DNA of 38,979 bases, taken from sequence record OZ035813.1, one strand, 5' to 3'. The position numbers and the translations under genes were made by a program. Below are positions 840-38,673 of the stretch, in pieces (positions within the stretch are counted from its first letter, which is position 1; every line of letters starts with the position of its first letter). A model generated the notes under the pieces. It searched no databases. It saw only the letters and a program-made list of their open reading frames with translations, and was not told the origin of the DNA. Source of the stretch: Kayfunavirus LM33P1.

Positions 840-2599
840 GTAAAGACTTAGTGGCGCGTCAGGCGCTAATGACTGCACGTATGAAGTCAGACTTCGTGTT
901 CTTCCTGTTCGTCCTGTGGAAAGCTCTGTCGCTCCCAGTCCCGACTCGCTGTCAGATTGACATGGCGAAGAAACTATCGGCTGGGGACAACAGGCGCTTC
1001 ATCCTACAGGCGTTCCGTGGTATAGGGAAGTCCTTCATTACGTGTGCCTTCGTTGTCTGGAAGCTATGGAACAACCCAGACTTGAAGTTCATGATTGTGT
1101 CGGCCTCAAAGGAGCGAGCCGATGCTAACTCCATCTTCATCAAGCGAATCATCGACCTCATGCCTCAGCTTCAGGAACTCAAACCTAAGCAGGGACAGCG
1201 AGATGCGGTTATTAGCTTCGACGTGGGACCTGCCAAGCCAGACCACTCACCTTCGGTTAAGTCCGTTGGTATCACTGGTCAGTTGACTGGTAGTCGTGCT
1301 GACATCCTGATTGCCGATGACGTGGAGGTTCCGAACAACTCAGCGACTCAGGCTGCACGAGACCGTCTATCAGAGCTTGTGAAAGAGTTCGACGCTATCC
1401 TGAAGCCGGGAGGTACGATCATCTATCTGGGTACTCCTCAGAACGAGATGACCCTGTACCGTGAGCTGGAAGGTCGTGGGTACACCACTACTATCTGGCC
1501 CGCTCGTTATCCACGCGACAGGAAGGACTGGCAGTCTTACGGCGACCGTCTGGCTCCTATGCTTCAGGAAGAGCTGGAAGAGGACCCTGAGTCCTTCTAC
1601 TGGCGTCCGACTGATGAAGTACGCTTCGATGATACGGACCTGAAGGAACGTGAGCTGTCCTACGGTAAAGCTGGCTTCGCTCTACAGTTCATGCTTAACC
1701 CGAACCTGAGTGATGCCGAGAAGTACCCTCTTAAGCTCCGTGACCTTATCGTAGCCGACTTGGACCCAGCGTCCAGCCCAATGGTCTACCAATGGTTGCC
1801 GAACCCTCAGAACAAGCGTGAGGACGTTCCTAACGTTGGACTCATGGGTGACTCGTACCACACGTATCAGACTGTAGGTTCTGCCTTCAGCTCATACACC
1901 CAGAAGATTCTGGTCATTGACCCTAGTGGTCGTGGTAAGGATGAAACTGGATATGCGGTACTGTACCAGCTCAACGGCTACATCTTCGCTATGGAAGTTG
2001 GTGGCATGCGTGGTGGTTATGAAGACTCTACGCTGGAAGCCTTGGCTAAGATTGGTCGTAAGTGGAGGGTCAACGAATACGTCATTGAGGGTAACTTCGG
2101 TGATGGTATGTACCTTGAGTTATTCAAGCCTGTAGCTGCCCGTATCCATCCTGCTGCTGTAACTGAAGTGAAGAGTAAGGGTCAGAAAGAACTCCGCATC
2201 TGTGACGTTCTGGAGCCTATCATGGGGTCTCACAGACTTATCGTTAACGCTGCCGCTATCGTCCAAGACTACCAGTCAGCCTCTGATAAGGATGGTGTTC
2301 GTAACCCTATCTACTCTCTCTTCTACCAGATGACTCGTATCTCTCGTGAACGTGGAGCATTGGCACATGATGACCGACTTGATGCGCTGGCTATCGGTGT
2401 ACAGTTCTTCGTTGAGTCGATGGCTAAGGATGCCAACAAAGGCGAACGTGAAGTCACTGAGGAGTGGCTGGAGGAACAGATGGAGAACCCACGGAAAGGC
2501 TTCGAGTCCATCCACACTGAGTTCTGGGACAATGGGGTCCGGGTAACTCACGATACGGACGACGAGCTTGGACTAGGGTCATACGTTACGTTCCACTAG
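836..2599 (+). CDS. terminase large subunit (T7 gp19-like)
   Basis: 587 aa; strong similarity to recalled T7 gp19 ([64 protein letters not shown]); start is TTG at 836 preceded by AGGAGG, N-terminal length matches T7. Confidence 0.95.
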
Positions 2600-2609
2600 C
2601 TGAATGAAT

Positions 2610-2656
2610 AACTATAGGTGAAAGCTGCATTAATAAGCAGCTAGTAACCTATAGTT
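2610..2656 (+). repeat. imperfect inverted repeat after the terminase gene
   Basis: AACTATAGG..AGCTGC ATTAATAA GCAGCT..CCTATAGTT; central 6-bp stem with 8-nt loop and outer 9-bp arms. Confidence 0.5.
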
Positions 2657-2693
2657 ACTACCAGTCTAACATACTGTTTTACAAGGAGTTTGG

Positions 2694-2716
2694 ACTTAAC
2701 TATCACTATAGGGAAG
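2694..2716 (+). promoter_or_regulatory. phage RNAP promoter (phiOR-like, right end)
   Basis: ACTTAACTATCACTATAGGGAAG; predicted +1 at 2711. Confidence 0.75.
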
Positions 2717-2896
2717 ACCCCCGGTTACTTATAGTATTACTATAGTGAATATACATATGCAGACTTTATGCAAGACCTTAGGAGGCAGACTCCGAGTTCT
2801 TACCTAAGGCTTGCACCGATGGAAGGAGGGTGATATTAATCATAATCCCTCCAATACAGATAGTCACCGACCATAGATACAGGAGGTATGTAGCAT

Positions 2897-3055
2897 ATGG
2901 CAAAGACCAAAGCTGTACTTAAAGCTCTGGCGACCAATCGAGCTACATACAGGTTTCTTACTGCTGTTCTACTTGCTGCTGGCGTTACTGCTGGAAGTCA
3001 GTGGGTCGGGTGGGTCGAGACTCTCGTATGTTCTCTGGTCTCTCAGTGTAATTAA
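2897..3055 (+). CDS. small hydrophobic protein (gene 19.5 position)
   Basis: 52-codon ORF with AGGAGG 10 nt upstream, downstream of a phage promoter; below the length cutoff of the supplied ORF track. Confidence 0.45.
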   Translation: MAKTKAVLKALATNRATYRFLTAVLLAAGVTAGSQWVGWVETLVCSLVSQCN

Positions 3056-3164
3056 CGCAATCATGATAACAATCAACGAAAGGAGGTAGGGATGGACGAG
3101 GAGTCTTATGGGTCGTTCTCTGACGAAGATTATCAGACGGAGTGGGAATACGCGCATTGAAGAC

Positions 3165-3205
3165 CTAAGGTCAGTTCATAGCTGACGCTACTCTACTGAC
3201 CTTAG
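3165..3205 (+). repeat. 10-bp perfect inverted repeat (CTAAGGTCAG / CTGACCTTAG) near the right genome end
   Basis: arms separated by 21 nt; non-coding context. Confidence 0.5.
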
Positions 3206-3368
3206 CTACTGTAGTCAAGGACTTTAGGTAACACCTTAAGAGAAGCTCACTTAGGGTCATCCTACTTATTGGTCTATCCTAGTGTCGCCTGACCTACGGT
3301 CCTTGACCTACAGTGGCTGTGGCCTACAGTAGTGACGATGAGTTTTGGACAAAAAGTTTGAGACCACA

Positions 3369-3580
3369 TCTCACACTTCAAGAACCTCAAGTCTCCCCAT
3401 AGGCCCTCTTTCAGTCCAGACCAAAGGCCCTACCCGTTACTGCTCCTTGCAGTCACAGCCAGTCTATCATAAGGTTGGACAGATGGTCAAGACTTAAGGT
3501 CAACGATAGGCTGAGGCTATGGCTTAGGGAAGGACGATAGGTTGGGACTATTGGTCTTCTTTGAGTCTCTATCTGTATAA
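3369..3580 (+). repeat. predicted direct terminal repeat / genome left end (collapsed single copy)
   Basis: begins TCTCACA like the T7 left end and ends GAGTCTCTATCTGTATAACC resembling the end of the T7 terminal repeat; boundaries approximate. Confidence 0.35.
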
Positions 3581-3700
3581 CCATAAGTCACAACCATAGG
3601 TCACAGCCTACCTCTCACAACCATAAGTCATAACCTACAGTCTCACTAACCTACAGTCTCAACCATAAGACACCAACACCTACAGTCATAGACCTACAGT
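3581..3700 (+). repeat. array of short direct repeats (CCATAAGTCA / CCTACAGTC) next to the predicted terminal repeat
   Basis: at least 9 copies of the 8-10 bp motifs within 120 bp; analogous to the CCTAAAG heptamers at the T7 left end. Confidence 0.6.
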
Positions 3701-3790
3701 TAATAGACACAAGGCTATAGACTTAAGGTCTAAGACATGTTAGTCAAAGACTATATCCTCTTACACCATGGGGCCGACGATAGCTTAATC

Positions 3791-3840
3791 AATATTATTT
3801 CAAATTACCTATTGACTATAGGTCCAGACTATGGCCTAAT
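3791..3840 (+). promoter_or_regulatory. candidate host sigma70 early promoter (A1-like) with AT-rich upstream element
   Basis: AT-rich AATATTATTTCAAATTACCT then TTGACT at 3812-3817; -10 weak (CCTAAT at 17-bp spacing or TAATAG). Confidence 0.35.
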
Positions 3841-3951
3841 AGCTTCCGTCAACACGACACGGCAACAACCGGATAGTGAAGACGCCGGTCCGGTCCGGTT
3901 AAGTAGTCAGCCTGTAAGACATACGAACAACAGGCAACCGACAGAAAGTAG

Positions 3952-3981
3952 TTGACAGGCAGTAACGACTTAAAGTAATAT
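3952..3981 (+). promoter_or_regulatory. host sigma70 early promoter (T7 A3-like)
   Basis: TTGACA, 18-bp spacer, TAATAT; downstream GTACCACAT..GAAAC..GCTCTTTAACAATCTGG resembles the T7 A3 leader. Confidence 0.6.
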
Positions 3982-4095
3982 GTACCACATCGAAACAACG
4001 GTGATGACCAACACTGAATGGTCTACCTGAAGTCCTCTGACTGAAGGGAATGCTCTTTAACAATCTGGATAAACTCTTAATGTGCGCCGATAGCG

Positions 4096-4151
4096 ACTAA
4101 CTACAGGGCCTTTGAGTCTACATCTGAAGGCCCTGACTGATAGTCACTAAC
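4096..4151 (+). promoter_or_regulatory. early-region repeated hairpin element (copy 1)
   Basis: contains GGCCCTGACTGATAGTCACTAAC and a 7-bp stem CAGGGCC/GGCCCTG; lies just upstream of the first early ORF. Confidence 0.4.
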
Positions 4152-4158
4152 TTAAAGG

Positions 4159-4413
4159 ATGGACACTATGAAACACTTAAGCACAATCACTAATCGCAAT
4201 GAAGTATTCGTGAACACTAAAGGTTATGCGTGGATTCAGCTTAAAGAGATGACAGGAGCGCGTCACCGTGTGGTAGTGCGCAAGGTATCAAGCAAGCAGT
4301 TCAGCAACTACAGCGTCGATACTGTGCGTATAGACAACGAGACATACCTGATAGACTCGCAGATAACCGTGAGTCCTACAGTGGGCGTCTCAGCTCCTTA
4401 TTTCGCTAACTGA
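4159..4413 (+). CDS. hypothetical early protein, first gene after the host promoters
   Basis: 84-aa ORF about 90 nt downstream of the T7-like leader GCTCTTTAACAATCTGG; no recognisable motif; alternative ATG at 4168. Confidence 0.5.
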   Translation: MDTMKHLSTITNRNEVFVNTKGYAWIQLKEMTGARHRVVVRKVSSKQFSNYSVDTVRIDNETYLIDSQITVSPTVGVSAPYFAN

Positions 4414-4420
4414 GAGTGAT

Positions 4421-4468
4421 TAACTACAGGTCGTTAGACTGATAGCGGCCTGACTGATAGTCACTAAC
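4421..4468 (+). promoter_or_regulatory. early-region repeated hairpin element (copy 2)
   Basis: ACTACAGGTC..GGCCTGACTGATAGTCACTAAC upstream of ocr. Confidence 0.4.
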
Positions 4469-4496
4469 ACATAATTAACTTTGAGAGGATATAACT

Positions 4497-5000
4497 ATGG
4501 AACGTAATGCTAACGCATACTATGAGCTGCTGGCTGCAACCGTTGAGGCATTTATCGAGCGTATTCAGTACGACCACCTGACTCAAGATGACGACTACAG
4601 CGCTGCGCTGCATGAGGTCGTAGACGGTCAGGTTCCACACTATTACCACGAGATTTTTACGGTGATGGCTGCTGATGGTATAGACAACGAGTTCGAAGAC
4701 TCTGGGATGATACCTGAAACCAAGGACGTAACGCGTATCCTACAAGCTCGCATCTATGAGGCACTTTATAACGACGTGTCTAATAGCTTGGATGTAGTCT
4801 GGTTTGAGGATGAAGAGGCAGACGAAGAGGATGAATATTGGGTAGTTGACGCTAAAACAGGCGCAATAATTGTGCAAGCTGTAGCTCTTGAGGTCGCTAC
4901 TGCATGTGCCAAGGTCAACTATGTGATAGGTCGCCACCTTCAGGTGGAAGACATCAATGATAACGTAGTGTTTGACCCTGCTGCTGAGGACTGCGAGTGA
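4497..5000 (+). CDS. ocr: Ocr-like anti-restriction DNA-mimic protein (T7 gp0.3 homolog) with C-terminal extension
   Basis: residues 1-110 align with recalled T7 Ocr ([45 protein letters not shown] versus T7 [45 protein letters not shown]); acidic patch, then about 50 extra residues absent from T7 Ocr. Confidence 0.8.
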   Translation: [167 protein letters not shown]

Positions 5001-5149
5001 TGGTAACTTATGGCCTCTGCCAGCACCACGTCACTAACGCCCGGCTTATGGTCAAGACCGGGCAGTTAGACCACGATTGGGCTATGCGTCTCTTGAAAGT
5101 GGTCTACAGGAGACGCAAGCGTATACACGACAGTTTACACGCTAAGTGA
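5000..5149 (+). CDS. small basic hypothetical protein
   Basis: 49-aa ORF whose ATG overlaps the ocr stop (TGATG); ends just before a repeated hairpin element. Confidence 0.35.
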   Translation: MVTYGLCQHHVTNARLMVKTGQLDHDWAMRLLKVVYRRRKRIHDSLHAK

Positions 5150-5150
5150 C

Positions 5151-5196
5151 AGACTACAGGTCATCAATGCTGGTGGCCTGACTGATAGTCATTAAC
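5151..5196 (+). promoter_or_regulatory. early-region repeated hairpin element (copy 3)
   Basis: GACTACAGGTCA..GGCCTGACTGATAGTCATTAAC upstream of ORF 5213. Confidence 0.4.
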
Positions 5197-5212
5197 AACT
5201 GAGAGGGAAGAT

Positions 5213-5440
5213 ATGAACACAATCACTGGTGCCATAACCAAAGGTTTTCGAGCAATTTTCGGTGAAACGCAAGAAGTATGCACCAATCATAAATTCGTAC
5301 TTTCTTGCGTAGCAGGTGACGAGTTTGACGGGTTCGATAAACTGGTGGTTTGCGACCATTGCGGACAAGAGGCTATCCAACACTCAAACGGTAAATTTGA
5401 ATTAATAGACGATAGCCTTACAGAAGGAGACGGCGAGTAA
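5213..5440 (+). CDS. hypothetical early protein with four-cysteine (zinc-ribbon-like) motif
   Basis: 75 aa; Cys pairs in VCTNHKFVLSC and CDHC; SD GAGAGGGAAG upstream. Confidence 0.5.
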   Translation: MNTITGAITKGFRAIFGETQEVCTNHKFVLSCVAGDEFDGFDKLVVCDHCGQEAIQHSNGKFELIDDSLTEGDGE

Positions 5441-5572
5441 CCTAAATAAACAGGAGAGAACCAAATCATAGCTTGACCATAACACTGACGTGATGGTACT
5501 GAGTGATAGACGAGAGGTCATCGACTGATAGGTGGCCTCAAAGATTACCACTTACATTGATAGGAGTTAACT

Positions 5573-5677
5573 ATGAGCACTGCAATCATCTGGACTATCT
5601 CAGGCTTCGTAGCGTGGGGAATGTTTACTCTAGTCTGCAAACTACCGGTCCTTACTCAACTGTTATGGGGCTTATGA
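5573..5677 (+). CDS. small hydrophobic early peptide
   Basis: 34-aa ORF with SD TAGGAG upstream; TGA overlaps next ATG (ATGA). Confidence 0.3.
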   Translation: MSTAIIWTISGFVAWGMFTLVCKLPVLTQLLWGL

Positions 5678-5877
5678 CTATGAGTATCGCACTATTGATA
5701 GCCATAGGCTATGGACTTATCGCCTACGTGCTGGTGAGAGACATCAACAAAGCGCGTAAAGTCTACAAATTCAAATATGTACGTCTGGGTAGCTGGACTG
5801 TACGTCAACCTAACGGACGATTCATGCGTAACTTAGCGAACGTCTGGGATATAGCAACACTTGGGAGCAAACTGTAA
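5674..5877 (+). CDS. small membrane protein (early)
   Basis: 67 aa with N-terminal TM-like helix SIALLIAIGYGLIAYVLV; translationally coupled to neighbours by ATGA overlaps. Confidence 0.4.
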   Translation: MTMSIALLIAIGYGLIAYVLVRDINKARKVYKFKYVRLGSWTVRQPNGRFMRNLANVWDIATLGSKL

Positions 5878-6203
5878 TGAACAAGTCATACGGGATTAAT
5901 CTGGTACACTCTATGGACGCAGACATGCAAATGTTAAGCCTACTGGCTACCGGGTATCGTCACGGAACGTCAAGTCACTCCGCACGTCAACAGCAGGAGC
6001 GGGACCGGGTACTGCAAGCAAGACTCCGGGCTGAGGGCCATAAGTCCGAACTAATGTGTCTGGTGTATGGTGGACGACCAATCACTGACGATGGTAAACT
6101 TTTAGTCTCAGGCTGGAAGGCGATAGACCAACGGTCAACCATCAAGCACACGACTCATGGTGACTTCAGTCATCTCCACGCTAACCCGCTGATATGCAAG
6201 TAA
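5877..6203 (+). CDS. hypothetical early protein
   Basis: 108-aa ORF at the position where T7 carries the gp0.7 kinase; no kinase motifs seen. Confidence 0.55.
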   Translation: MNKSYGINLVHSMDADMQMLSLLATGYRHGTSSHSARQQQERDRVLQARLRAEGHKSELMCLVYGGRPITDDGKLLVSGWKAIDQRSTIKHTTHGDFSHLHANPLICK

Positions 6204-6208
6204 TTCTG

Positions 6209-6231
6209 ACTTAACTATCACTATAGGACTC
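6209..6231 (+). promoter_or_regulatory. phage RNAP promoter immediately upstream of the RNAP gene
   Basis: ACTTAACTATCACTATAGGACTC; predicted +1 at 6226. Confidence 0.7.
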
Positions 6232-6300
6232 AAGGTCTAAGACTCCAAGTGAAAGACCAAAGAGACTTTAAGTGAAAGACTAATAACAAGGACTTTAAGT

Positions 6301-8982
6301 ATGAGCGTCATCTCTATTGACAAGCACGACTTCTCTGATGTGTCGAACGCCATTGAGCCGTTTAACCTACTGGCTGACCACTACGGGCAAGACATTGCAG
6401 TCAAACAGCTTCAGCTTGAGCACGAGGCATACACTGAAGGCGAGCGACGTTTCATCAAGAACCTTGAGAGACAGACTGAGCGAGGGGAACTGGCAGACAA
6501 TCAGGTCGCCAAGCCTTTGATGCAGACTCTGGTCCCTAAGATTGCGCAAGCCGTCAAGGAGTGGCATGAAGGTCCAGACGGGAAGCTGTCAACCTCTCGT
6601 CCGAGCGTAGCGTTCACCATGTTGAGCACTGAAGAGAAGGCCGTAAAGGTCCGCTCTTTGCGCATCTCCTGCGAGTCTGCTGCGGTTATCATATTGAAGG
6701 TCATACTCTCCAAGCTGGTCAAGCCTGAAGGGATACCGATTACACCGATGGCCTCAGCGATAGGTCGCACACTTGAGGACGAAATCCGCTTCGGTCGCAT
6801 CCGTGACAAGGAGAAAGAGCACTTCAAGAAGGCGATAGCTGATAACCTGAATAAGCGGGCCGGGGCGTCCTACAAGAAAGCCTACATGCAAGCGGTCGAG
6901 GCATCCATGCTGGAGCAAGGCCAACTGGAAGATGCGTGGGGGACTTGGAGTCCGACCGAGGCTGTCCACGTTGGAATCAAGATGCTGGAGATTGTCATCC
7001 AGTCCACACAACTGGTCGAGCTTAAGCGTTACGGTGCTGGCAATGCAGCGGCTGACGTTGAGATGGTCCACCTGTCAGACTTCTGGGTCAAGAAGATGGC
7101 ACAACGAGGATTCAGCCTTGCGGGTATAGCTCCAGTCTACCAGCCTTGCGTCGTTCCACCTAAGCCGTGGACTGGTGTCGTAGGCGGTGGGTACTGGGCC
7201 AAAGGACGCAGACCATTACCACTGATTCGCTTAGGGTCTAAGTCTGCGGTAGCACGCTACGAAGACGTGTATATGCCTGAAGTCTATGACGCTGTGAACA
7301 TCATTCAGAATACACCTTGGAAAGTGAACAAGAAGGTTCTGGAAGTGGTGAACATGGTCGAGAAGCTGAACAACACGCCTATTGATGACATCCCTCAGAT
7401 GGAACCGCTGAAGCCTGAGGACTATGCGGGTGAGACTGAAGAAGAACTCAAGGCATGGAAGAAGGCTGCTGCTGGTATCTATCGCCGCGAGAAGGCCAGA
7501 CAGTCACGAAGATTGTCACTGAGCTTTATCGTCAACCAAGCGAACAAGTTCTCTCAGTTCAAGGCCATCTGGTTCCCGTATAACATGGACTGGCGCGGTC
7601 GCGTCTACGCTGTGCCGATGTTCAACCCTCAGGGTAACGACATGCAAAAGGGTCTTCTGACTCTGGCAGTCGGTAAGCCTATTGGTGCTGATGGTTTCAA
7701 ATGGCTGAAGGTCCACGGTGCAAACTGCGCGGGTGTCGATAAAGTCACCTTCGAGGAGCGTATCAAGTGGGTGGAAGATAACCACGACAACATCATGGCT
7801 GCTGCCAAGGCACCGATGGATAGCATTGAGTGGTGGGGCAAGTTAGACTCTCCGTTCTGCTTCCTAGCGTTCTGCTTCGAGTATGCTGGCGTAATGCACC
7901 ACGGCTTGTCTTACTCCTGCTCGCTGCCGATAGCGTTCGATGGGTCCTGCTCTGGGATTCAGCACTTCAGCGCTATGCTTCGCGACCACATCGGTGGACA
8001 TGCAGTAAACCTGACGCCATCCGGTAAGGTCCAAGACATCTACCGCATCGTGTCTGACCGCATTGAGGAGGAGCTTAAAGTCCTACTGGTTAACGGTACG
8101 GACAACGAGATGGTAACTCACGAGGACAAGAAAACTGGTGAGATTACCGAGCGTCTCAAGCTGGGGACACGAGAGCTTGCCCGTCAGTGGCTGACCTACG
8201 GTATGTCACGAAAGGTCACTAAGCGTTCGGTCATGACTCTGGCCTACGGGTCGAAAGAGTACGGCTTCGCAGACCAAGTTTACGAGGACATCGTGATGCC
8301 AGCGATTGACTCAGGGTCTGGCGCTATGTTCACTGAACCAAGCCAAGCATCTCGCTTCATGGCTAAGATGATTTGGGAAGCTGTGAGTGTGACCGTAGTT
8401 GCTGCGGTTGACGCGATGAAATGGCTTCAGGGTGCTGCCAAGCTGCTTGCTGCTGAAGTGAAGGACAAGAAGACTGGAGAAATCCTGAAGCCTTGTCTTC
8501 CGGTACACTGGGTCACACCTGATGGTTTCCCTGTCTGGCAGGAATACCGCAAGAAGGACACCACTCGTCTGAACCTGATGTTCTTAGGGTCATTCAACCT
8601 TCAGCCTACCGTCAACAAAGGCACGAAGAAAGAGCTGGACAAGCACAAGCAGGAGTCAGGCATTAGCCCGAACTTCGTCCACTCACAAGATGGTAGCCAC
8701 CTCCGCAAGACTGTAGTCCACACGCACCGCAAATATGGCGTGATGTCATTCGCAGTGATTCACGATAGCTTCGGGACCATCCCGGCTGACGCTGAGTATC
8801 TGTTCCGTGGAGTCCGTGAGACGATGGTCGAGACCTACCGCGACAACGATGTGCTGCTTGACTTCTACGAGCAGTTTGAATACCAGCTTCACGAGAGCCA
8901 GAGAGACAAGTTGCCTGAGCTTCCGAAGAAAGGTAAACTGAATATCGAAGACATCTTGTCTTCAGACTTTGCATTCGCTTAA
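6301..8982 (+). CDS. T7-like single-subunit DNA-directed RNA polymerase (gp1)
   Basis: 893 aa; characteristic T7 RNAP sequence throughout (for example PMFNPQGNDMQKGLLTLA, HDSFGT, AFCFEYAGV, C-terminal FAFA). Confidence 0.97.
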   Translation: MSVISIDKHDFSDVSNAIEPFNLLADHYGQDIAVKQLQLEHEAYTEGERRFIKNLERQTERGELADNQVAKPLMQTLVPKIAQAVKEWHEGPDGKLSTSRPSVAFTMLSTEEKAVKVRSLRISCESAAVIILKVILSKLVKPEGIPITPMASAIGRTLEDEIRFGRIRDKEKEHFKKAIADNLNKRAGASYKKAYMQAVEASMLEQGQLEDAWGTWSPTEAVHVGIKMLEIVIQSTQLVELKRYGAGNAAADVEMVHLSDFWVKKMAQRGFSLAGIAPVYQPCVVPPKPWTGVVGGGYWAKGRRPLPLIRLGSKSAVARYEDVYMPEVYDAVNIIQNTPWKVNKKVLEVVNMVEKLNNTPIDDIPQMEPLKPEDYAGETEEELKAWKKAAAGIYRREKARQSRRLSLSFIVNQANKFSQFKAIWFPYNMDWRGRVYAVPMFNPQGNDMQKGLLTLAVGKPIGADGFKWLKVHGANCAGVDKVTFEERIKWVEDNHDNIMAAAKAPMDSIEWWGKLDSPFCFLAFCFEYAGVMHHGLSYSCSLPIAFDGSCSGIQHFSAMLRDHIGGHAVNLTPSGKVQDIYRIVSDRIEEELKVLLVNGTDNEMVTHEDKKTGEITERLKLGTRELARQWLTYGMSRKVTKRSVMTLAYGSKEYGFADQVYEDIVMPAIDSGSGAMFTEPSQASRFMAKMIWEAVSVTVVAAVDAMKWLQGAAKLLAAEVKDKKTGEILKPCLPVHWVTPDGFPVWQEYRKKDTTRLNLMFLGSFNLQPTVNKGTKKELDKHKQESGISPNFVHSQDGSHLRKTVVHTHRKYGVMSFAVIHDSFGTIPADAEYLFRGVRETMVETYRDNDVLLDFYEQFEYQLHESQRDKLPELPKKGKLNIEDILSSDFAFA

Positions 8983-29199: not shown

Positions 29200-29670
29200 A
29201 TGTATATTCGCAAGGCTACGGAACAGGATGTCCACTACTTTCTGTGGCATCTTTCAGCAGATGATGTTAATGAGTGCAAAGCAAACTACGGGTCAACCGT
29301 GGGTCTCTCAGAGAGACTGCTTAAGCATCTATCTCCGTCATCTGTGGTTTTAACGAACGGTGTAGGTGAAGTGTTTGCCTATGGTGGAAACCAAGGGGAT
29401 AACGTATGGTTCTTGACTTCGGGTCTGGTCCACAAGCTGAGACCTAAAGAGAAGCGAGAGTTCATAAAGCGTATCTCTGAGTACAGGGACTTAATGTTAG
29501 ACCAATACGGGACCATCTGGAACTACGTGTGGTCAGGCAATAAGTCTCACATTAAATTCTTGAAGTTGCTTGGGGCTAAGTTCCATGATGATTGGACTAT
29601 CAGCCCGGTAACTGGTGAGCATTTTCAATTATTCACTATCTCTAAGGAGGACGTATGTGTGAACCCGTAA
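29200..29670 (+). CDS. hypothetical protein at gene 13 position (possible internal virion/assembly protein)
   Basis: 156-aa ORF downstream of a phage promoter and upstream of gp14; assignment by position only. Confidence 0.6.
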   Translation: MYIRKATEQDVHYFLWHLSADDVNECKANYGSTVGLSERLLKHLSPSSVVLTNGVGEVFAYGGNQGDNVWFLTSGLVHKLRPKEKREFIKRISEYRDLMLDQYGTIWNYVWSGNKSHIKFLKLLGAKFHDDWTISPVTGEHFQLFTISKEDVCVNP

Positions 29671-30242
29671 GTATCGGCATGGGTATCATGGCTGTAGCCG
29701 GGGCCACTATGTCCGCATCCCAGCAGGCAAAGGCCGAAGGTGCAGCAATTGACGCTCAGAACCGACAGGCTCAGGAAATGGTTAAGCAGATGAACTACTC
29801 TGACGCCAACCTGAGAATGCAGGAGCGAGACCTGAAGGAGCAGCAGATGGCTGAATTGACAGAGACCACGCTCAACGGTATACGCAATCAGGGCATGGTC
29901 AGAGCTGCAGTGGCTGAGTCAGGTCTGGAAGGTAACTCTATGGACAGGATTGAACGTCAGGTCAAAGGAGATACAGTCAAGGAGCGAGCAGGGATTACCG
30001 AAAGTTACAACCGAGACTATGCGGCTATCTTCGGGAACCGTATCGCCAACATTGAGAACACAAAGTCTGCTATCCGTGGTCAAGGTAAAATCATCAAGAC
30101 CAGCCCACTGGCCCATGCACTTAATGTTGCTAGCGCCGGGATGCAAGGTTACGCCGCTGGTAAGTCAATCTCTGGAGCGTCCAGCTCTGGCGGTGCTGCA
30201 CCTATTAGTGCTGCTAAAGGCACACCTACAGGTCATAGCTAA
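29655..30242 (+). CDS. internal virion protein B (gp14)
   Basis: 195 aa starting MC, with GNSMDRIER and NYRRDYAAIF resembling T7 gp14. Confidence 0.85.
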   Translation: MCEPVSIGMGIMAVAGATMSASQQAKAEGAAIDAQNRQAQEMVKQMNYSDANLRMQERDLKEQQMAELTETTLNGIRNQGMVRAAVAESGLEGNSMDRIERQVKGDTVKERAGITESYNRDYAAIFGNRIANIENTKSAIRGQGKIIKTSPLAHALNVASAGMQGYAAGKSISGASSSGGAAPISAAKGTPTGHS

Positions 30243-30253
30243 GAGGAGGAATA

Positions 30254-32536
30254 ATGGCTAGTAATATTGAATCAGCTCTGGCTAATCGGACTATGGGTCG
30301 TGGCAGGGCTCCGGGTAAAACTATCGCCGTCAACTATCAAGCAGCCAGCGTTCAGGCTCCTACTGGTGACTCCGGTCTGGCTCGTGCGTTAACCAACTTC
30401 GTTGAGTCTGGGACAGGATTGTACAAGCAGTTCAAGGACGAGGAGAAGACACGGGCCGACGAGCGGTCTAACGAGATTATCCGTAAACTGACACCTCAGC
30501 AAAGACGTGAGGCTATCCAGAACGGTACATTGCTGTATCAGGATGACCCTTACGCTATGGAAGCACTTCGAGTCAAGACGGGCCGTAACGCTGCCTTTGC
30601 GGTTGATGACGAGATTAACGTTAAGATTCAGAACGGTGAGTTCCGTACACGTCAGGACATGGAAGAGTATCGCCACCAGAGACTTCAGGACGCCGCTAAG
30701 TCCTATGCTGAAGAGGCTGGTATTAACCCTACCGACGAGTTCTTCCAGCGCGGGTTCAACGATAACATCACAGACCGAAACATCGCTATCTATGGGTCTT
30801 TCAATAAGTATTTCAGCAAGCAGTCTGAAGAGACAGCAATGTTGAACACTCGTATTGAGATGAACTCGTTCCTTAACGATGGGGACCTGATGCGTTCGCC
30901 TGAGTCTGGAAAGACCTTCATGGCCTACCTTCGGGATGGACTGACGACTGCTGCTATCCCTTCGGACCAGCGAGCACGAGAGGTAATCACCCAGACTGTC
31001 CGTGACGCAATCCAGAAGTCAGGAGGCTCAAACTTCCTACAGCAAGTCCGTGGCGAGCGTATCACCCTTAACGGTGTGGACGCTACAGTCGAAGAGATTG
31101 TAGGCCCTGACGTCTTCAATGCTGCTGTGGTTGAGGCTCAAGGTACCGAGTACAAGTTGGTGGCTAAGTATCAGGAAGACTTATCGTTAGGCGTTCAGTC
31201 TGCGATTCTTCAGGACGACCCAACCATCGGTCTGGACCAGATTCAGAAACTCAAGGAGCAGAACAACCTGCTTCAGCCGGGTGAAGAACTCACGCCTCAG
31301 CGTCAGATGCTTATTAATGCCGAAGCCAGCTTACTGGAAGCGGTCAAGCGTAAGTCCGCTGAACAGGCGAAGGAGAACACTAAGTTAATCCAGACCCAGA
31401 ACAAGCAACTAGTCATAGACCAAGTGTATCAGCGACGTCTGGCTGGGGACAACGTGTCCACCAACTATGAGGACCTTCCGGTCTCAGATGCTACAGGAGA
31501 GTTCAAACGTTCAGACATGAACAACTATGCGTCTGCCAAGCTACAGCAGATTGACCAGATGGACATCCCTGAGGCTGCTAAGGACGCCCAGAAGGTGGCA
31601 TTGTTAAGGGCTGACACTAACAACGGTCCGTTCCGTAATGCCTTCCAGACGCTTACTCAGGACGCTGCTGGTGAGTGGCAAGCTGCGGTCATCCGTGGAC
31701 AGTACGACCCAGACAAGATGAAACGCTTCGAGTCTCTTCGTCGTGCCTACACTCAGGACCCTTCAAGTTTCGCTGCTCTGTATCCTGACCAAGCTCAGTT
31801 GTTCTCTACGTTCGACCAGATGGACAAGATGGGTCTGGACCCTCAGACGATGATTGAAGCTGATAAGCAAGCTGCAAGTCAAAGCCGTGAGATGCGCATG
31901 GAGTCAGACAAGGCGTGGCAGGAGTTGAAGAACGACTCTCGGAATAAGGACCTTTCGCGTCTTCCTACGTCTCTGGACGCAAGTGCTCGTAAGGTCTGGG
32001 ACTCATGGTACTATCGTACAGGTAACGCTGACGCTGCAACTCAGCAGACTCAACGCTGGCTGAATGAGAACACCGTAACGTTCCAGTCTGATGGTTCTGA
32101 TGGTAAGTCCATCGGCATGGTGTCCAAGCACCAGCTTATGGTCGGGGATAACCCAGAGTCGTGGCAGGTGGGTCGAGACATTATCGACACCGCTCGTAAG
32201 CAGCTCATTAAGGACAACCCTTGGGTAGTGAACTCTCAGTTGTCCGTTGTTGAACAGAACGGCTCTATCTTCCTCCAAGACGCTACGGGGACTATTCGTA
32301 TTCGATACGATAAAGAACTTGTAGGTAAACTCTACCGCGAACAACAGCAGAAGGTACAAGATGCCGCATATGCTCAGGCAGAACGTGACGCTAACAAGCG
32401 AGCGCGTATCGTCGGGACTAAAGCTGCTGGTGACAAACGTCGAGCTGACCGAGAGGCCAACATCGAGAAGAGCGGTGGGATGTACAATGACGTCTCACTG
32501 GAGGGTATCGCAAACGTACTAATTGGTAAGGAGTAA
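30254..32536 (+). CDS. internal virion protein C (gp15)
   Basis: 760 aa, size and position of T7 gp15; assignment by gene order. Confidence 0.9.
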   Translation: MASNIESALANRTMGRGRAPGKTIAVNYQAASVQAPTGDSGLARALTNFVESGTGLYKQFKDEEKTRADERSNEIIRKLTPQQRREAIQNGTLLYQDDPYAMEALRVKTGRNAAFAVDDEINVKIQNGEFRTRQDMEEYRHQRLQDAAKSYAEEAGINPTDEFFQRGFNDNITDRNIAIYGSFNKYFSKQSEETAMLNTRIEMNSFLNDGDLMRSPESGKTFMAYLRDGLTTAAIPSDQRAREVITQTVRDAIQKSGGSNFLQQVRGERITLNGVDATVEEIVGPDVFNAAVVEAQGTEYKLVAKYQEDLSLGVQSAILQDDPTIGLDQIQKLKEQNNLLQPGEELTPQRQMLINAEASLLEAVKRKSAEQAKENTKLIQTQNKQLVIDQVYQRRLAGDNVSTNYEDLPVSDATGEFKRSDMNNYASAKLQQIDQMDIPEAAKDAQKVALLRADTNNGPFRNAFQTLTQDAAGEWQAAVIRGQYDPDKMKRFESLRRAYTQDPSSFAALYPDQAQLFSTFDQMDKMGLDPQTMIEADKQAASQSREMRMESDKAWQELKNDSRNKDLSRLPTSLDASARKVWDSWYYRTGNADAATQQTQRWLNENTVTFQSDGSDGKSIGMVSKHQLMVGDNPESWQVGRDIIDTARKQLIKDNPWVVNSQLSVVEQNGSIFLQDATGTIRIRYDKELVGKLYREQQQKVQDAAYAQAERDANKRARIVGTKAAGDKRRADREANIEKSGGMYNDVSLEGIANVLIGKE

Positions 32537-32540
32537 CATA

Positions 32541-35500
32541 ATGGCGACTCGTGGTATTCGCAATAACAATCCGGGTAACATCCGGGTAAGTAAGGACCAA
32601 TGGGAAGGGATGACTGGAGATGATGGCGCATTCGTCACCTTCGATAGTCCAGAGTCTGGCGTCCGAGCTTTAGGTAAAAACCTGCTGTCCTACGGTCGCC
32701 AAGGTTATGACTCCATCGAGAAGATTATCAACCGATGGGCACCTCCTAACGAGAACGACACTAAGGCTTATATTGACTCAGTGGTGGCTGCAACTGGTAT
32801 TCCAGCTACCCAGAGTCTAGACCTATCTGACCCTGACACCCTGTCTTCTCTGGCACAAGCTATCAGCTTCCATGAGACAGGATCACGGTACGACCCTGAA
32901 GTCTATCAGAAGGGAGTCGCACGGGCACTCAATGGCATTAGCCCAAAGACTCCACCAGTAAGCGCTAACGTATTTGACGCACTCACGGAAGGACTCAAGG
33001 CTAAACCTAAAGTAGATCTGGGCGAGAACCTTCCGACCGCTGCTGGTCTAAACATTGAGGGTCAAGCACCTGAAGCTCCCAACGAATCGTTCGGTGAGAT
33101 GTTCTATAAGTCTACTGGCGAGACCATGCAGGAACGAGAGGATCGCTCTACGTGGTTCGGTTTCGGCTCGGCTACAGAAGCTGAAGTGAAGAACTCTATG
33201 GTCGGCGTGGCTATCCGCGCTGGTCAGACCGAGGACTCACTTGATGTCATTGGCGATGTGTTTAACCCGACCCGCTGGAACAACCATAAGTGGTCTCGTG
33301 AGGAGCTGGACCAGATTCGTAACGCTGGAGTTCTTCCTCAGTATTACGGGGTCATTACTGGTGGCTCCCCTCAGAACCTGACCGAGCTTATTAACTTGGC
33401 GCTTGAGAATCAGAAGTTGGACCAAGAGAAGGCCAAGGCTGGGATTGGTGCTCAGTTAGCTGCTGGTGTGATTGGGGCTGGCGTGGACCCTCTGACCTAC
33501 GTTCCTATTGCTGGGCAGGTAGGCAAAGGTGGGAAGCTAGTCAACAAGATGTTCACTGTGGCAGCTCAGTCTGGTGCTCTGGCTGGTGTGTCTGAGATGG
33601 CCCGTACCTCAGTGGCTGGTGGTGATGCTCATGTGGCTGAAGCTATCCTTGGCGGTGCTCTCTTCGGTGGTGGCATGACTGCTATCGCTGATGGGTTAGG
33701 CAGAGCCTTAGGCCGCAACACTAATGAGTTTGCTGGCCCAGCTACACGTCTGGAAGCTCGTGAGACCGCTCGTAACGTTGATGGTCAGGACCTGTCTCGT
33801 CTTCCTATTCAGGAAGGTGAGCAGACCTTTAGTCATCAAGGTGTTAAGTTCGCAGACGTTCCGAACGAGCCGGGTAGTGTACGACTGGAAGATGGTTCAA
33901 TCCTGATTGGTGAGAATCCTCTGAACCCTCAGACACGTAAAGTCTTTGACGAAGTGATTGAGCCTGAACGTGCCGCTGCTGGTGTGAACCTTGGTGGGCT
34001 GACTGAGATTGGCCTGAAGCTGCTTCGGTCCGAGAACCCTGAGATTCGTGGAGTAGCTGCTGACTTAGTACGTTCACCGACTGGTATGCAGTCTGGGGCC
34101 TCAGGTAAAATAGGGACAACTGCGTCAGACGTATTCGAGAGACTTCGTGCTGTGGACCATCGGTTCTACAATGACATCGACGATGCGGTTACTGAGGCAC
34201 TAAAGGACCCGTACTTCCAGACAGCATTCTGGCGAGACTCTGGCGCATTCCGTCAAGACATCTATCAGCGCGTGTCTATGGCTATCGAAGATGGTAGCGG
34301 AAACCTGAAGGCTGAATTGACTCCGGGAGAACTGAAAGTCTATGACCTGCTGAAGAACCAGTTTGACGCCAAGCGTGAGATGATGGAGAACCCCGCTATG
34401 TTTGGTCGCCCAGACGCTCAGTCTATCTTTCCGGGTAGCCGCTTCAAGGGAACATACGTCCCGCATGTGTATAGCAACCAGATGAAGGAGCTGTACATCA
34501 AGGAGCTTGGGAGTCCAGAGGCACTACAGGAGGCCATCAAGAAGTCATGGTTGACCAGCTATGCGTCTCGACCTGAAGTCAAGAAACGTGTGGACGAGGC
34601 ACTCTTAGAGGCTGACCCTACGTTGACTCCAGAAGGACTTGCGGCTGCGGTCGATAAGTACGCCAACGATAAGGCTTATGGTATCTCTCACACCGAGCAG
34701 TTCGAGCGTTCATCCGTAATGGAAGAGAACATCAATGGTCTGGTGGGTCTGGAGAACAACAGCTTCCTTGAGGCTCGTAACCTGTTCGATAGCGATATGT
34801 CAATCGTCCTACCTAACGGTCAGACCTTCAGTGTCAACAACCTGCGTGAGTGGGACATGGACAAGATTGTCCCGGCCTACAACCGTCGAGTTAATGGCGA
34901 TATTGCTATCATGGCTGGTACAGGCAAGACCACGAAGGACATGAAGGACTTGGTTGAGACCCTGATGAACAAGGCTGGGGATGACGGTAAGTTGAAAGGT
35001 GAAGTATCTACCTTACGTGACACTTTGAAGATTCTAACTGGTCGTGCTCGACGTGATGGTGCTGATGATGCGGCCTTCGCTACCGTGATGCGCACAATGA
35101 CAGACCTATCGTTCTTCGCTAAGAATGCCTACATGGGTGTTCAGAACTTAACGGAGATTGGTGGTATGCTGGCTCGTGGTAACGTTCGTGCAATGCTTCA
35201 TGGAGTCCCAATTTTCCGTGACCTAGCCTTCCGTAACAAGAAGGTTGGGGCCTCAGAGATTAAGGACCTGCACAATGTTATCTTCGGTAAGGAACTGGAT
35301 GACTCAATCCGTCCGTCTAAACAGGATGTCATTGACCGTCTGCGATCTTACAGTGACCTCGGTCGTGGTACAGCTACAGCTCTGGGGACTGCCAAGTATT
35401 ACACTGGCGAACTTGCAGTACGCTCTCCGTTCACTAAAGTCCTCAACGGTACGACCAACTACCTGTTAGATGCTGGACGTCAGGGCTTCCTGTCTGACAT

Positions 35501-36428
35501 CGTGGAGCATAGCCTGACTGGTAGTAAGCGTAAGTTCGATGACCGCTGGCTGAAGACCGCTGGTATCTCTGACGAGCAGTGGAAGGGCATTAAGTCCCTA
35601 ATCCGTGAGTCAGTGACTCGTGGTCCAGACGGGAAGTACACCATCAAGGATAAGAAGGCGTTCAGTCAGGACCCAAGGGCTATGGACCTCTGGCGTATGG
35701 GTGACACCATCGCTGACGAGACGTTACTCCGGCCTCATAAGCTGTCAAACATGGACGCCAAGGCTTATGGTCCTCTCGCTAAGACTGTCCTTCAGTTTAA
35801 GAACTTCGTCATCAAGTCTATCAATGGGAGAACCATGCGAACCTTCTATAACGCCACGAAGAACAACAGAGCGATTGACGCTGCACTGTCGACCGTGATG
35901 TCTATGGGTCTGGCTGGTATCTACTACATGGCTCAGGCGCATGTCAAGGCTTATGCTATGCAGGATGGTCGAGACCGTGACTACCTTAAGCAAGCTCTGG
36001 ACCCAACGATGATTGGCTATGCGGCCCTGTCCCGTAGTTCACATCTTGGTGGCCCACTTGGGGTAGCTAACATTCTGGGTGGAATCGCTGGGTATGAGGA
36101 CACTAAGATGCTCCGCTCGTCAATCCTTCCGCGCTCACCTACCGAGAAGACGGAGAAGCCAATCGCCTTTGGTGCTGCTTCCAGTGGTCCGGTAATGAAT
36201 GTGGTCGGCAACTTCCTTGAGCAGGTCCCGGCTTTCGGCTATGCTGCTAACGTTGGTGCTACGGCTTACAACTTGGCGGGATACCTCAAGGCTGATACCC
36301 GTGTCAACGAGCGAGACTACATGACCGGGATGTATAACACGTTCCGTGAACTTGTACCGAATGACCCGATTACCCAGAAGTTGCTGCTTGGAACGTTTGA
36401 GGAGCAGGGCATCCACATCAAGGACTAA
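32541..36428 (+). CDS. internal virion protein D (gp16) with divergent N-terminal domain
   Basis: about 1295 aa from ATG 32541; from about residue 200 onward close match to T7 gp16 (RSPTGMQSGASGK, MENPAMFG, NGDIAIMAGTGKTTK, FKNFVIKSINGRTMRTFY, GTFEEQG); first about 190 residues lack the T7 transglycosylase-like sequence. Confidence 0.9.
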   Translation: MATRGIRNNNPGNIRVSKDQWEGMTGDDGAFVTFDSPESGVRALGKNLLSYGRQGYDSIEKIINRWAPPNENDTKAYIDSVVAATGIPATQSLDLSDPDTLSSLAQAISFHETGSRYDPEVYQKGVARALNGISPKTPPVSANVFDALTEGLKAKPKVDLGENLPTAAGLNIEGQAPEAPNESFGEMFYKSTGETMQEREDRSTWFGFGSATEAEVKNSMVGVAIRAGQTEDSLDVIGDVFNPTRWNNHKWSREELDQIRNAGVLPQYYGVITGGSPQNLTELINLALENQKLDQEKAKAGIGAQLAAGVIGAGVDPLTYVPIAGQVGKGGKLVNKMFTVAAQSGALAGVSEMARTSVAGGDAHVAEAILGGALFGGGMTAIADGLGRALGRNTNEFAGPATRLEARETARNVDGQDLSRLPIQEGEQTFSHQGVKFADVPNEPGSVRLEDGSILIGENPLNPQTRKVFDEVIEPERAAAGVNLGGLTEIGLKLLRSENPEIRGVAADLVRSPTGMQSGASGKIGTTASDVFERLRAVDHRFYNDIDDAVTEALKDPYFQTAFWRDSGAFRQDIYQRVSMAIEDGSGNLKAELTPGELKVYDLLKNQFDAKREMMENPAMFGRPDAQSIFPGSRFKGTYVPHVYSNQMKELYIKELGSPEALQEAIKKSWLTSYASRPEVKKRVDEALLEADPTLTPEGLAAAVDKYANDKAYGISHTEQFERSSVMEENINGLVGLENNSFLEARNLFDSDMSIVLPNGQTFSVNNLREWDMDKIVPAYNRRVNGDIAIMAGTGKTTKDMKDLVETLMNKAGDDGKLKGEVSTLRDTLKILTGRARRDGADDAAFATVMRTMTDLSFFAKNAYMGVQNLTEIGGMLARGNVRAMLHGVPIFRDLAFRNKKVGASEIKDLHNVIFGKELDDSIRPSKQDVIDRLRSYSDLGRGTATALGTAKYYTGELAVRSPFTKVLNGTTNYLLDAGRQGFLSDIVEHSLTGSKRKFDDRWLKTAGISDEQWKGIKSLIRESVTRGPDGKYTIKDKKAFSQDPRAMDLWRMGDTIADETLLRPHKLSNMDAKAYGPLAKTVLQFKNFVIKSINGRTMRTFYNATKNNRAIDAALSTVMSMGLAGIYYMAQAHVKAYAMQDGRDRDYLKQALDPTMIGYAALSRSSHLGGPLGVANILGGIAGYEDTKMLRSSILPRSPTEKTEKPIAFGAASSGPVMNVVGNFLEQVPAFGYAANVGATAYNLAGYLKADTRVNERDYMTGMYNTFRELVPNDPITQKLLLGTFEEQGIHIKD

Positions 36429-36492: not shown

Positions 36493-38673
36493 ATGTCCAC
36501 GATTACACAATTCCCTTCAGGAAACACTCAGTACAGGATAGAGTTCGACTACCTAGCCAGAACGTTTGTTGTTGTTACGCTGGTGAATAGCTCTAACCCT
36601 ACCCTGAACCGTGTACTGGAAGTTGGTCGAGATTACCGATTCCTTAATCCAACGATGATTGAGATGTTGGCTGACCAATCAGGTTTCGACATCGTTCGTA
36701 TTCACCGTCAGACTGGAACTGACTTAGTGGTAGACTTCAGGAATGGCTCAGTGTTGACAGCTAGTGACCTGACCAATTCAGAGCTTCAGGCTATCCATAT
36801 TGCAGAAGAAGGTCGAGACCAAACGGTTGACTTAGCGAAGGAATATGCCGATGCTGCTGGTAGCTCTGCTGGCAACGCTAAGGATAGCGAGGACGAATCA
36901 CGCCGAATCGCTGCGAGTATCAAGGCAGCTGGTAAAATTGGCTATATTACCCGTCGCTCCTTCGAGAAAGGCTTCAACGTTACAACATGGAACGAGGTCC
37001 TGCTATGGGAAGAGGATGGTGATTATTACCGCTGGGATGGTACGCTTCCAAAGAACGTTCCCGCTGGTTCAACTCCTGAATCATCTGGTGGTATTGGGCT
37101 GAGTGCGTGGGTTAGTGTTGGTGATGCGTCACTTAGAGCAAACCTGGCTGATAGTGATGGCGCTAAATACATAGGCAGTGGAGAAAGGACATTACTTGAG
37201 CACAACAATGATGTTTTGCACTCAAAAGACTTTCCAACACTGCAGGCAGCTATAGATGCATCTTTGCAAAAAAATGATCTACTGGTGTCTCCTGGCAATT
37301 ATACTGAAAAAGTTACTATTGGAAACGCGCAGTTAAAAGGTGTTGGCGGGGCCACGGTACTAAAAACTCCGGCAGACTTTACAAACACTGTTCAGGTTAA
37401 TTTAGCTACACCTCATTGGCAATTCCGCCATAGTGGTGGTTTTGCTATAGATGGTTCCGGGACAACCGGGGCCGTAGGTATTAGTTTTGACCCGTCAGAC
37501 CAATATTCCGGACGTCATAATTTTAGTGATGTATACATCCACAACATCAACAAGGCCATTCAGAAGCCTTCCGGGAACATCGGCAATACTTGGAGAAATA
37601 TTGGGATATCTACGTGTGATTGGGGGTATTACGCGATTAGTGGCTCAGAGATGCATTGCGGGGCCGATACCCTCTACAATATCCACTTCGATGGCATCTC
37701 CACCTATGCAGTCTATCTAGACGGCACTGTCGATAATGGCGGGGGGGGCGCATGGTGGCTTAAAGACTCCATTATTGAGGCTTCCGGAGGTGGCGGGATA
37801 TACTTAAAAAGTAAATCGGGCGACTGTCCTACATCTCCATGCGGGGTATCCAATATATGGATGGAAGCGATCGCAACATCACCGGCTGTTCAGGTAGACG
37901 GCGTGGCGCAAAAACCGCGAGTTCTCAAGTTGGTAGACACAGCGATATTCTTTGCTGAGTATTCTTATCTCAACAACATCGAGCTATCCAACTCCAACTT
38001 AGTAACTTATGGTTGCCGTTTTGACAACGCTGATGGCAATCAGGATATTGTCGTGGATGCACAAAGTACCATTGTAGCCCATGACGTGTATTTAAACGGC
38101 AGTTCTGGAAAGGACGTTATTGTGGAGTCCGTAGCATCGCAATCTGCAACGATAGCTGCCACAAACTTATCTCTGAGGGGCAACTTAACAAGAGGGAGAG
38201 TATTTAATACGCCGACAGGGAATAAATTAATGGCTATCACATTTGACTCAGGTAGCCATAATTTTTCTGGCAGCGGCACCGTTAACGGTTCGACTGTATC
38301 TGACGGACTTCACGCCGCTACATGTACCGAATTTTCATTCCCCGGAGCCGGTTTATATGAAATGGTAGCGACAAGAACAACCATTACATCCGGTAGATGG
38401 TACGTGTGGGGAGTTAACTCACGCCTACAATCTGGCTCGGCGGATATTAGTATAACGTCAGGTATTACCATGGGTAGTGTTTACACAAAGCCGGGGGAGT
38501 GGATTAGCACTTTCGGTGTAGGAAAGGCATCTACCACTGGCACTGTAGCGCTATACGTTTCCACAGGAGGAGGTTCGGGAGCTACGGTCAGATTCAGTGA
38601 CTTTTTCATCGCTGAGTTTACGACGCAAGCTCAGGCTTTAGCTTTCGCCAATTCAAGGATGTCGTTATCATAA
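36493..38673 (+). CDS. tail fiber / tailspike (gp17): T7-like N-terminal adaptor fused to beta-helix-like C-terminal domain
   Basis: 726 aa; N-terminus (EFDYLARTFVVVTL, DYRF, DFRNGSVLTASDL, IHIAEEGRDQTVD) matches the T7 gp17 N-terminal domain; remainder is rich in G/N/S/T repeats typical of parallel beta-helix tailspikes and has a different base composition. Confidence 0.9.
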   Translation: MSTITQFPSGNTQYRIEFDYLARTFVVVTLVNSSNPTLNRVLEVGRDYRFLNPTMIEMLADQSGFDIVRIHRQTGTDLVVDFRNGSVLTASDLTNSELQAIHIAEEGRDQTVDLAKEYADAAGSSAGNAKDSEDESRRIAASIKAAGKIGYITRRSFEKGFNVTTWNEVLLWEEDGDYYRWDGTLPKNVPAGSTPESSGGIGLSAWVSVGDASLRANLADSDGAKYIGSGERTLLEHNNDVLHSKDFPTLQAAIDASLQKNDLLVSPGNYTEKVTIGNAQLKGVGGATVLKTPADFTNTVQVNLATPHWQFRHSGGFAIDGSGTTGAVGISFDPSDQYSGRHNFSDVYIHNINKAIQKPSGNIGNTWRNIGISTCDWGYYAISGSEMHCGADTLYNIHFDGISTYAVYLDGTVDNGGGGAWWLKDSIIEASGGGGIYLKSKSGDCPTSPCGVSNIWMEAIATSPAVQVDGVAQKPRVLKLVDTAIFFAEYSYLNNIELSNSNLVTYGCRFDNADGNQDIVVDAQSTIVAHDVYLNGSSGKDVIVESVASQSATIAATNLSLRGNLTRGRVFNTPTGNKLMAITFDSGSHNFSGSGTVNGSTVSDGLHAATCTEFSFPGAGLYEMVATRTTITSGRWYVWGVNSRLQSGSADISITSGITMGSVYTKPGEWISTFGVGKASTTGTVALYVSTGGGSGATVRFSDFFIAEFTTQAQALAFANSRMSLS

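Follow-up and report, generated by a model that had tools for sequence, protein, structure and literature searches.

The DNA analyzed here (the window) is a stretch of 38,979 nucleotides from Kayfunavirus LM33P1, deposited as OZ035813.1. The subject of this work is its gene 16, which encodes the internal virion (ejection) protein D, gp16, a protein of 1,295 amino acids (positions 32541–36428, + strand). We propose, with a probability of about 0.85, that gp16 is a normal T7-type ejection protein in which an Enc34-type (PHA02564) peptidoglycan glycosidase head replaces the SLT domain of T7 gp16. The gene assignment draws on the list of open reading frames (ORFs), on PHROG 342 (E=0) and on matches to T7 gp16 and to the PDB entry 9VVP. 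A previous reading of this DNA, made without database searches (hereafter the sequence-only reading), had also assigned this gene to gp16, correctly. It had further suspected that a cell-wall-active or other ejection-associated domain was swapped in at the N-terminus, and our results support a swap of the first kind.

Identity and predicted active site of the N-terminal head

In a phmmer search of PDB, residues 3–122 of gp16 match the Enc34 ORF39 endolysin's catalytic domain (7Q47_A) with E=5.1e-15. The head also matches PHROG families of endolysins and of virion proteins, with E-values down to 1.5e-55. The predicted lysozyme-like peptidoglycan hydrolase domain spans residues 1–132 (32541–32936, + strand), in place of the T7 SLT. 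Every computational test of Enc34/PHA02564 membership that we ran placed the head in this family, while the SLT tests were negative.

The predicted structure of the head is all-helical and resembles a permuted alpha-lobe of lysozyme. The Enc34 domain, a member of the PHA02564 family, is likewise described as all-helical and similar to a permuted lysozyme alpha-lobe (PMC8943055). After Enc34, the nearest structural relatives of our model are GH73 glucosaminidases. The model points to an Enc34-type fold for the gp16 head.

The three motifs singled out by the sequence-only reading are all present, at residues 5–15 (GIRNNNPGNIR), 66–73 (WAPPNEND) and 107–114 (AISFHETG). Alignment to 7Q47, whose chain numbering is that of PMC8943055 plus one, yields equivalents for Enc34 Glu131, Tyr95 and Trp79, three residues whose active-site roles are described in that paper. 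Glu131 corresponds to the predicted catalytic Glu, E112, in AISFHETG (codon at 32874–32876), Tyr95 to Y77 (32769–32771) and Trp79, of the substrate groove, to W66 (32736–32738), all on the + strand. E112 lies on the fourth of five helices (98–113) in the predicted model. All of 32 diverse homologues share E112 and Y77, and at least 90% of them share W66. The invariance of E112 and Y77 extends across the gp16-type, epsilon15 gp15, JBD69 and Seurat copies, and more than 20 further family positions are conserved in the gp16-borne copies of Kayfunavirus, Minipunavirus and Ampunavirus.

Boundary between the head and the T7-like body

BLASTP of gp16 against T7 gp16 (NC_001604) gave a single alignment, of residues 125–1295 with T7 residues 152–1315, containing 634 identities in 1184 positions (54%). 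The same boundary was returned by phmmer against PDB for the T7 gp16 chains 7EYB and 6YT5. In a three-way MAFFT alignment with T7 and with the Morganella phage MmP1, identity to T7 gp16 was 55% over residues 201–1295, 30% over residues 125–200 and 16% over residues 1–124, the last value being noise from forced alignment. BLASTP of gp16 residues 1–140 against T7 residues 1–170 found nothing significant (best E=1.5), and hhalign gave a probability of 0.15% for a match between a 32-sequence profile of the head domain and T7 residues 1–150.

The profile searches that might have identified the N-terminus as SLT did not do so. Neither the whole protein nor residues 1–200 have a Pfam match at E<=1, and NCBIfam likewise gave none, while T7 gp16, our positive control, matches Pfam SLT (PF01464) at residues 15–127 with E=1.7e-31. 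Since the Pfam-A and NCBIfam copies used carry no model of the head family, these scans by themselves could have suggested an "unknown domain".

According to these alignments, the replaced module is about 124–132 residues long (32541 to about 32936) and not about 190, as the sequence-only reading had estimated. That reading was right that the beginning of gp16 is unlike T7, but this holds for residues 1–124, which have no T7 counterpart, and not for residues 125–200, a diverged linker that the two proteins share. In the same way, the similarity to T7 that it saw from about residue 200 is real but begins at residue 125 (T7 152).

The variable linker, residues ~133–206 (32937–33158, + strand), aligns by BLASTP and MAFFT with T7 gp16 residues ~157–228 and is about 30% identical both to T7 gp16 and to MmP1 gp16. 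Taken from the breakpoint, gp16 residues ~125–206 and T7 residues 152–228, a stretch that includes the gp15-binding tape, also share only about 30% identity, with a few conserved patches. By alignment, residues 125–200 are a fast-evolving segment common to gp16 and T7. The conserved body follows, from residue ~207 to 1295 (33159–36428, + strand); it is 55% identical to its T7 counterpart and 51% identical to that of MmP1.

In T7 gp16, residues 1–156 form the enzymatic "wings" on the gp15 periplasmic tunnel, with the transglycosylase and its catalytic E37, and residues 157–228 are a "molecular tape" that binds gp15 (PMC8954989). The breakpoint (gp16 125, T7 152) coincides with this junction of wing and tape. 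Judged from the alignments, the enzymatic head alone is exchanged, and the tape-aligned linker and the whole body are kept. By analogy with T7, the linker would serve as a tape in this phage as well. The GC content of the head region is about 50%, like that of the remaining genome, and gives no sign of recent import.

Expected activity of the head

Two relatives inform the likely chemistry of the head. In turbidity assays, E. coli, P. aeruginosa and H. alvei with a permeabilised outer membrane are lysed by the Enc34 domain (PMC8943055). The PHA02564 domain of M4Lys, from Salmonella phage BSPM4, degrades purified peptidoglycan and removes N-acetylglucosamine (GlcNAc) from muropeptides; mass spectrometry of the muropeptides points to N-acetylglucosaminidase activity (PMC7143992). 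The Enc34 authors arrive at N-acetylglucosaminidase too, by structural analogy (PMC8943055). We infer from these relatives that the gp16 head is enzymatically active and shares their bond specificity, and its chemistry is probably that of a hydrolytic N-acetylglucosaminidase rather than lytic transglycosylation.

Proposed role and alternative explanations

We propose that the virion carries gp16 in its capsid core and that, at infection, gp16 is driven out through the tail along with gp14 and gp15. The ~130-residue head would then be placed beside the gp15 periplasmic tunnel and cut glycan strands locally, with E112 as the putative catalytic acid and Y77 and W66 lining the groove. Such cutting would let the ejectosome cross the murein layer and span the periplasm. 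A role of the head in ejection is suggested by T7, which requires its transglycosylase activity to internalise the genome where the peptidoglycan is highly cross-linked (PMC8954989). Packaging is supported indirectly by the likeness of gp16 to a near-identical protein of 1,295 amino acids modelled, in four chains, in the capsid core of phage E1004 (9VVP).

Several points weigh against this proposal. An apparent endopeptidase activity was also reported for M4Lys (PMC7143992), and for Enc34 the authors were unable to rule such an activity out (PMC8943055). The evidence for the bond specificity comes from a single muropeptide experiment, made with a distant relative, and from structural analogy, and our literature search turned up no activity assay for this gp16 or for any other gp16-borne copy of the domain. 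T7 can do without its muralytic head under many conditions (PMC8954989), and therefore the contribution of the gp16 head may be conditional. Finally, our model of the head matches the deposited 9VVP chain only partially (83 columns, root-mean-square deviation 9.2 Å), so that the state of the head within the capsid is less certain.

Other explanations agree with part of these results. The head could have the Enc34 fold and be active but cleave the bond between N-acetylmuramic acid (MurNAc) and GlcNAc, as a lysozyme-type muramidase, or have some other specificity. Specificity was measured for M4Lys only, and by an indirect method (PMC7143992), while that of Enc34 was assigned by analogy (PMC8943055), and the NO16 paper notes a software-predicted lysozyme activity for the NO16 phage homologue. 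Against this stand the GH73 glucosaminidases as the closest structures after Enc34 and the GlcNAc removed from muropeptides by M4Lys (PMC7143992), and we consider a different bond specificity unlikely. Many homologous GenBank records, labelled "peptidoglycan lytic exotransglycosylase" or "mltF", would lead one to expect an ordinary SLT/GH23 lytic transglycosylase at the N-terminus, if a diverged one. This reading might also draw on the distant common ancestry of the fold with GH23 and GH73 argued in the Enc34 paper (PMC8943055), but the profile and fold searches contradict it and make it very improbable. It is hardly credible that the head has no catalytic function in this phage and is present purely as a structural "wing" of the gp15 tunnel, as the invariance of E112 and Y77, the near-invariance of W66 and the conservation of more than 20 other positions would be unexpected for a decayed enzyme.

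Beyond the peptidoglycan glycosidase head that we favor, one can ask whether the swap was adaptive and not neutral, the glucosaminidase-type head cutting murein that resists a lytic transglycosylase, for instance murein with O-acetylated MurNAc. This would widen the hosts or physiological states that permit DNA ejection. Lytic transglycosylases require a free C6-OH on MurNAc, and both Morganella and Providencia O-acetylate their peptidoglycan. In support, all seven of the Minipunavirus records, from phages of these two hosts, have the Enc34-type head (7/7). However, the ~220 Kayfunavirus-like records that also have this head come from phages that infect E. coli, Salmonella, Citrobacter and Enterobacter, which to our knowledge are not O-acetylators, and we regard an adaptive origin as distinctly improbable.

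Comparison with related proteins

The Enc34 ORF39 protein, from a Hafnia phage (7Q47; PMC8943055), differs from gp16 in its setting. The Enc34 copy is a lysis-cassette endolysin with a C-terminal transmembrane domain, whereas the present domain heads a packaged ejection protein at its N-terminus and would do its cutting from the outside, as infection begins. M4Lys of BSPM4 (PMC7143992) belongs to the same PHA02564 family, a likeness by family and not by direct alignment, and differs in being an endolysin with a transmembrane domain. T7 gp16 (7EYB, 7K5C, 6YT5) occupies the same gene position, and in both proteins an N-terminal muralytic head, here a predicted one, takes up ~130–150 residues. 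The heads differ in type, as that of T7 is SLT/GH23 with the catalytic E37 near the N-terminus, whereas that of gp16 is Enc34-type with Glu 112 as the predicted catalytic residue. A T7 phage with mutated E37 is defective at 20 °C and on stationary-phase cells. The GH73 N-acetylglucosaminidases (FlgJ, 5DN5; TM0633, 4QDN; C. difficile Ecd09610, 8YXK) show no sequence-level membership, and the core helices of the Enc34 fold are circularly permuted relative to both GH73 and GH23 (PMC8943055).

A deposited structure includes Gp29 of the E. coli phage E1004 (9VVP, "Core proteins of the bacteriophage E1004", release date 2025-11-12), which has the same length and is near-identical to gp16, N-terminal domain included, with only a few substitutions. 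Comparison with the gp16 of related phages, a check put forward in the sequence-only reading, is informative for MmP1, a Minipunavirus (gp16 at 4456–8394 of its locus). This protein has the same head and is collinear with ours from residue 3 to the end, with 49% identity, although genus and host are different and a Tyr occupies the position of Trp66.

The relatives of the MmP1 head and body were also compared by identity. Its head is nearest to the Kayfunavirus heads (43–44% identity). The nearest non-Minipunavirus neighbours of its body (201–600) are SLT-bearing Klebsiella and T7/T3-like phages (51–56%), and a related Minipunavirus record is about 45% identical to the present gp16 body. Head and body of MmP1 gp16 may thus be phylogenetically incongruent, the differences in identity being small (45–56%) and read from identity bands rather than from a tree.

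Distribution of the head and the body

With the head as query, tblastn returned 736 phage records, of which 223 reach >=60% identity. With gp16 residues 201–600 we obtained 1,275 phage records (221 at >=80% identity), and with the T7 SLT head 1,223 records. These distributions were compared as record counts and not as accession lists. Going by the counts, phages of the Kayfunavirus-like clade seem as a rule to carry the Enc34-type head, and most other T7-like phages the SLT head. The collinearity with MmP1, the presence of the head in 7/7 Minipunavirus records and the unremarkable base composition indicate that the fusion of head and body is an old one and not a recent event.

The same domain is found in other contexts. 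It forms the N-terminus of a gp16-like protein in Burkholderia phage Bp-AMP3 (Okabevirinae) and makes up stand-alone lysis-cassette endolysins in JBD69 and Seurat. It also occurs in PHROGs annotated as tape measure, head or tail-injection proteins and in many BFVD virion proteins. In the Salmonella phage epsilon15, an Enc34-type domain with 57% identity to the gp16 head lies inside gp15, at residues ~266–363 (about 3001–3291 of the locus). In its annotation, this gp15 (2203–4731 of the locus) carries the label "putative lytic transglycosylase" and an HHpred match to SltB.

The domain family is very large: when 1.84 billion representative proteins were searched with a profile, 17,589 clusters (50% identity) matched at E<=1e-3, and 12,027 at E<=1e-10. 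Their members are stand-alone or embedded anywhere in proteins of up to ~1,400 amino acids, and one homologue representative, P0121 (762 amino acids), has four matched stretches. None of the 120 listed homologues of the head has a precomputed Pfam domain.

Annotation and significance

The gp16 head is a case of ordinary, already catalogued module swapping and would not surprise a specialist. Modular muralytic domains in podophage ejection proteins are a well-described theme (PMC5380687; PMC8954989; Ar-KM preprint). In the open-access literature we found no paper that names both Enc34 and a gp16 term (internal virion protein, ejectosome), nor one for PDB 9VVP or phage E1004. Even if unprinted, the link between Enc34 and gp16 follows from a routine search. 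It is a further example of the mosaic muralytic modules of podophage ejectosomes and opens no new question.

The main value lies in better annotation, since the head is not SLT and its chemistry is probably different. Many records with the Enc34-type head (e.g., ON637250, MW876471, OQ860962–OQ860987, MW358931) are annotated "peptidoglycan lytic exotransglycosylase", "peptidoglycan transglycosylase" and the like. As no SLT domain is detectable, this label was probably carried over from T7 gp16 via the conserved body. The clean boundary at about residue 125–132 is useful for the engineering of chimeric gp16 and for producing the head by itself as a small lysin against Gram-negative bacteria.

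Gene start, neighbouring genes and genome records

The ATG at 32541 was preferred as the start of gp16 because of a good Shine-Dalgarno sequence and because of agreement with deposited proteins, the PDB chain matching end to end. The Shine-Dalgarno AAGGAG, read from the sequence at 32528–32533 (+ strand), lies inside the 3' end of gene 15, with a spacer of 7 nucleotides to the ATG. The gp15 stop codon, TAA at 32534–32536, shortly precedes that ATG. A TTG at 32523, the start listed by the ORF program, was dropped in favor of ATG 32541.

The encoded gp16 is 100% identical to that of the LM33_P1 record, annotated "internal virion protein with endolysin domain" (RefSeq label). Over 600 bases at the gp16 site, the DNA is 100% identical to Escherichia phage LM33_P1 (LT594300 / NC_031937) and 97–98% identical to many Kayfunavirus (K1F-like) genomes.

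The gene order, from the ORF map and Pfam, is of T7 type (gp12-gp13-gp14-gp15-gp16-gp17). gp13 (29200–29670; Phage_T7_Gp13) and gp14 (29655–30242; T7_gp14) match dedicated T7 families in Pfam, whereas the gp15 homologue (30254–32536, + strand; 760 amino acids) has no Pfam family at E<=0.01. Downstream of gp16, the tail fibre/spike protein gp17 (36493–38673, + strand; 726 amino acids) was recognized by Pfam Phage_T7_tail. It combines a T7 tail-fibre N-terminal domain (residues 10–115) with a Tail_spike_N domain (151–211), and its long C-terminal part has no Pfam match. This combination resembles a further module swap with respect to T7, now in the receptor-binding protein.

The window itself looks like a rotated copy of the LM33_P1 record, with which it agrees in length (38,979 bp), as position 32541 here is 29165 in LT594300, an offset of 3,376 bases. 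With positions 2900–3900 as query, LM33_P1 was not among the best full-coverage matches, which is consistent with a stretch that spans the ends of that record. Other Kayfunavirus genomes align at coordinates like those of the present stretch.
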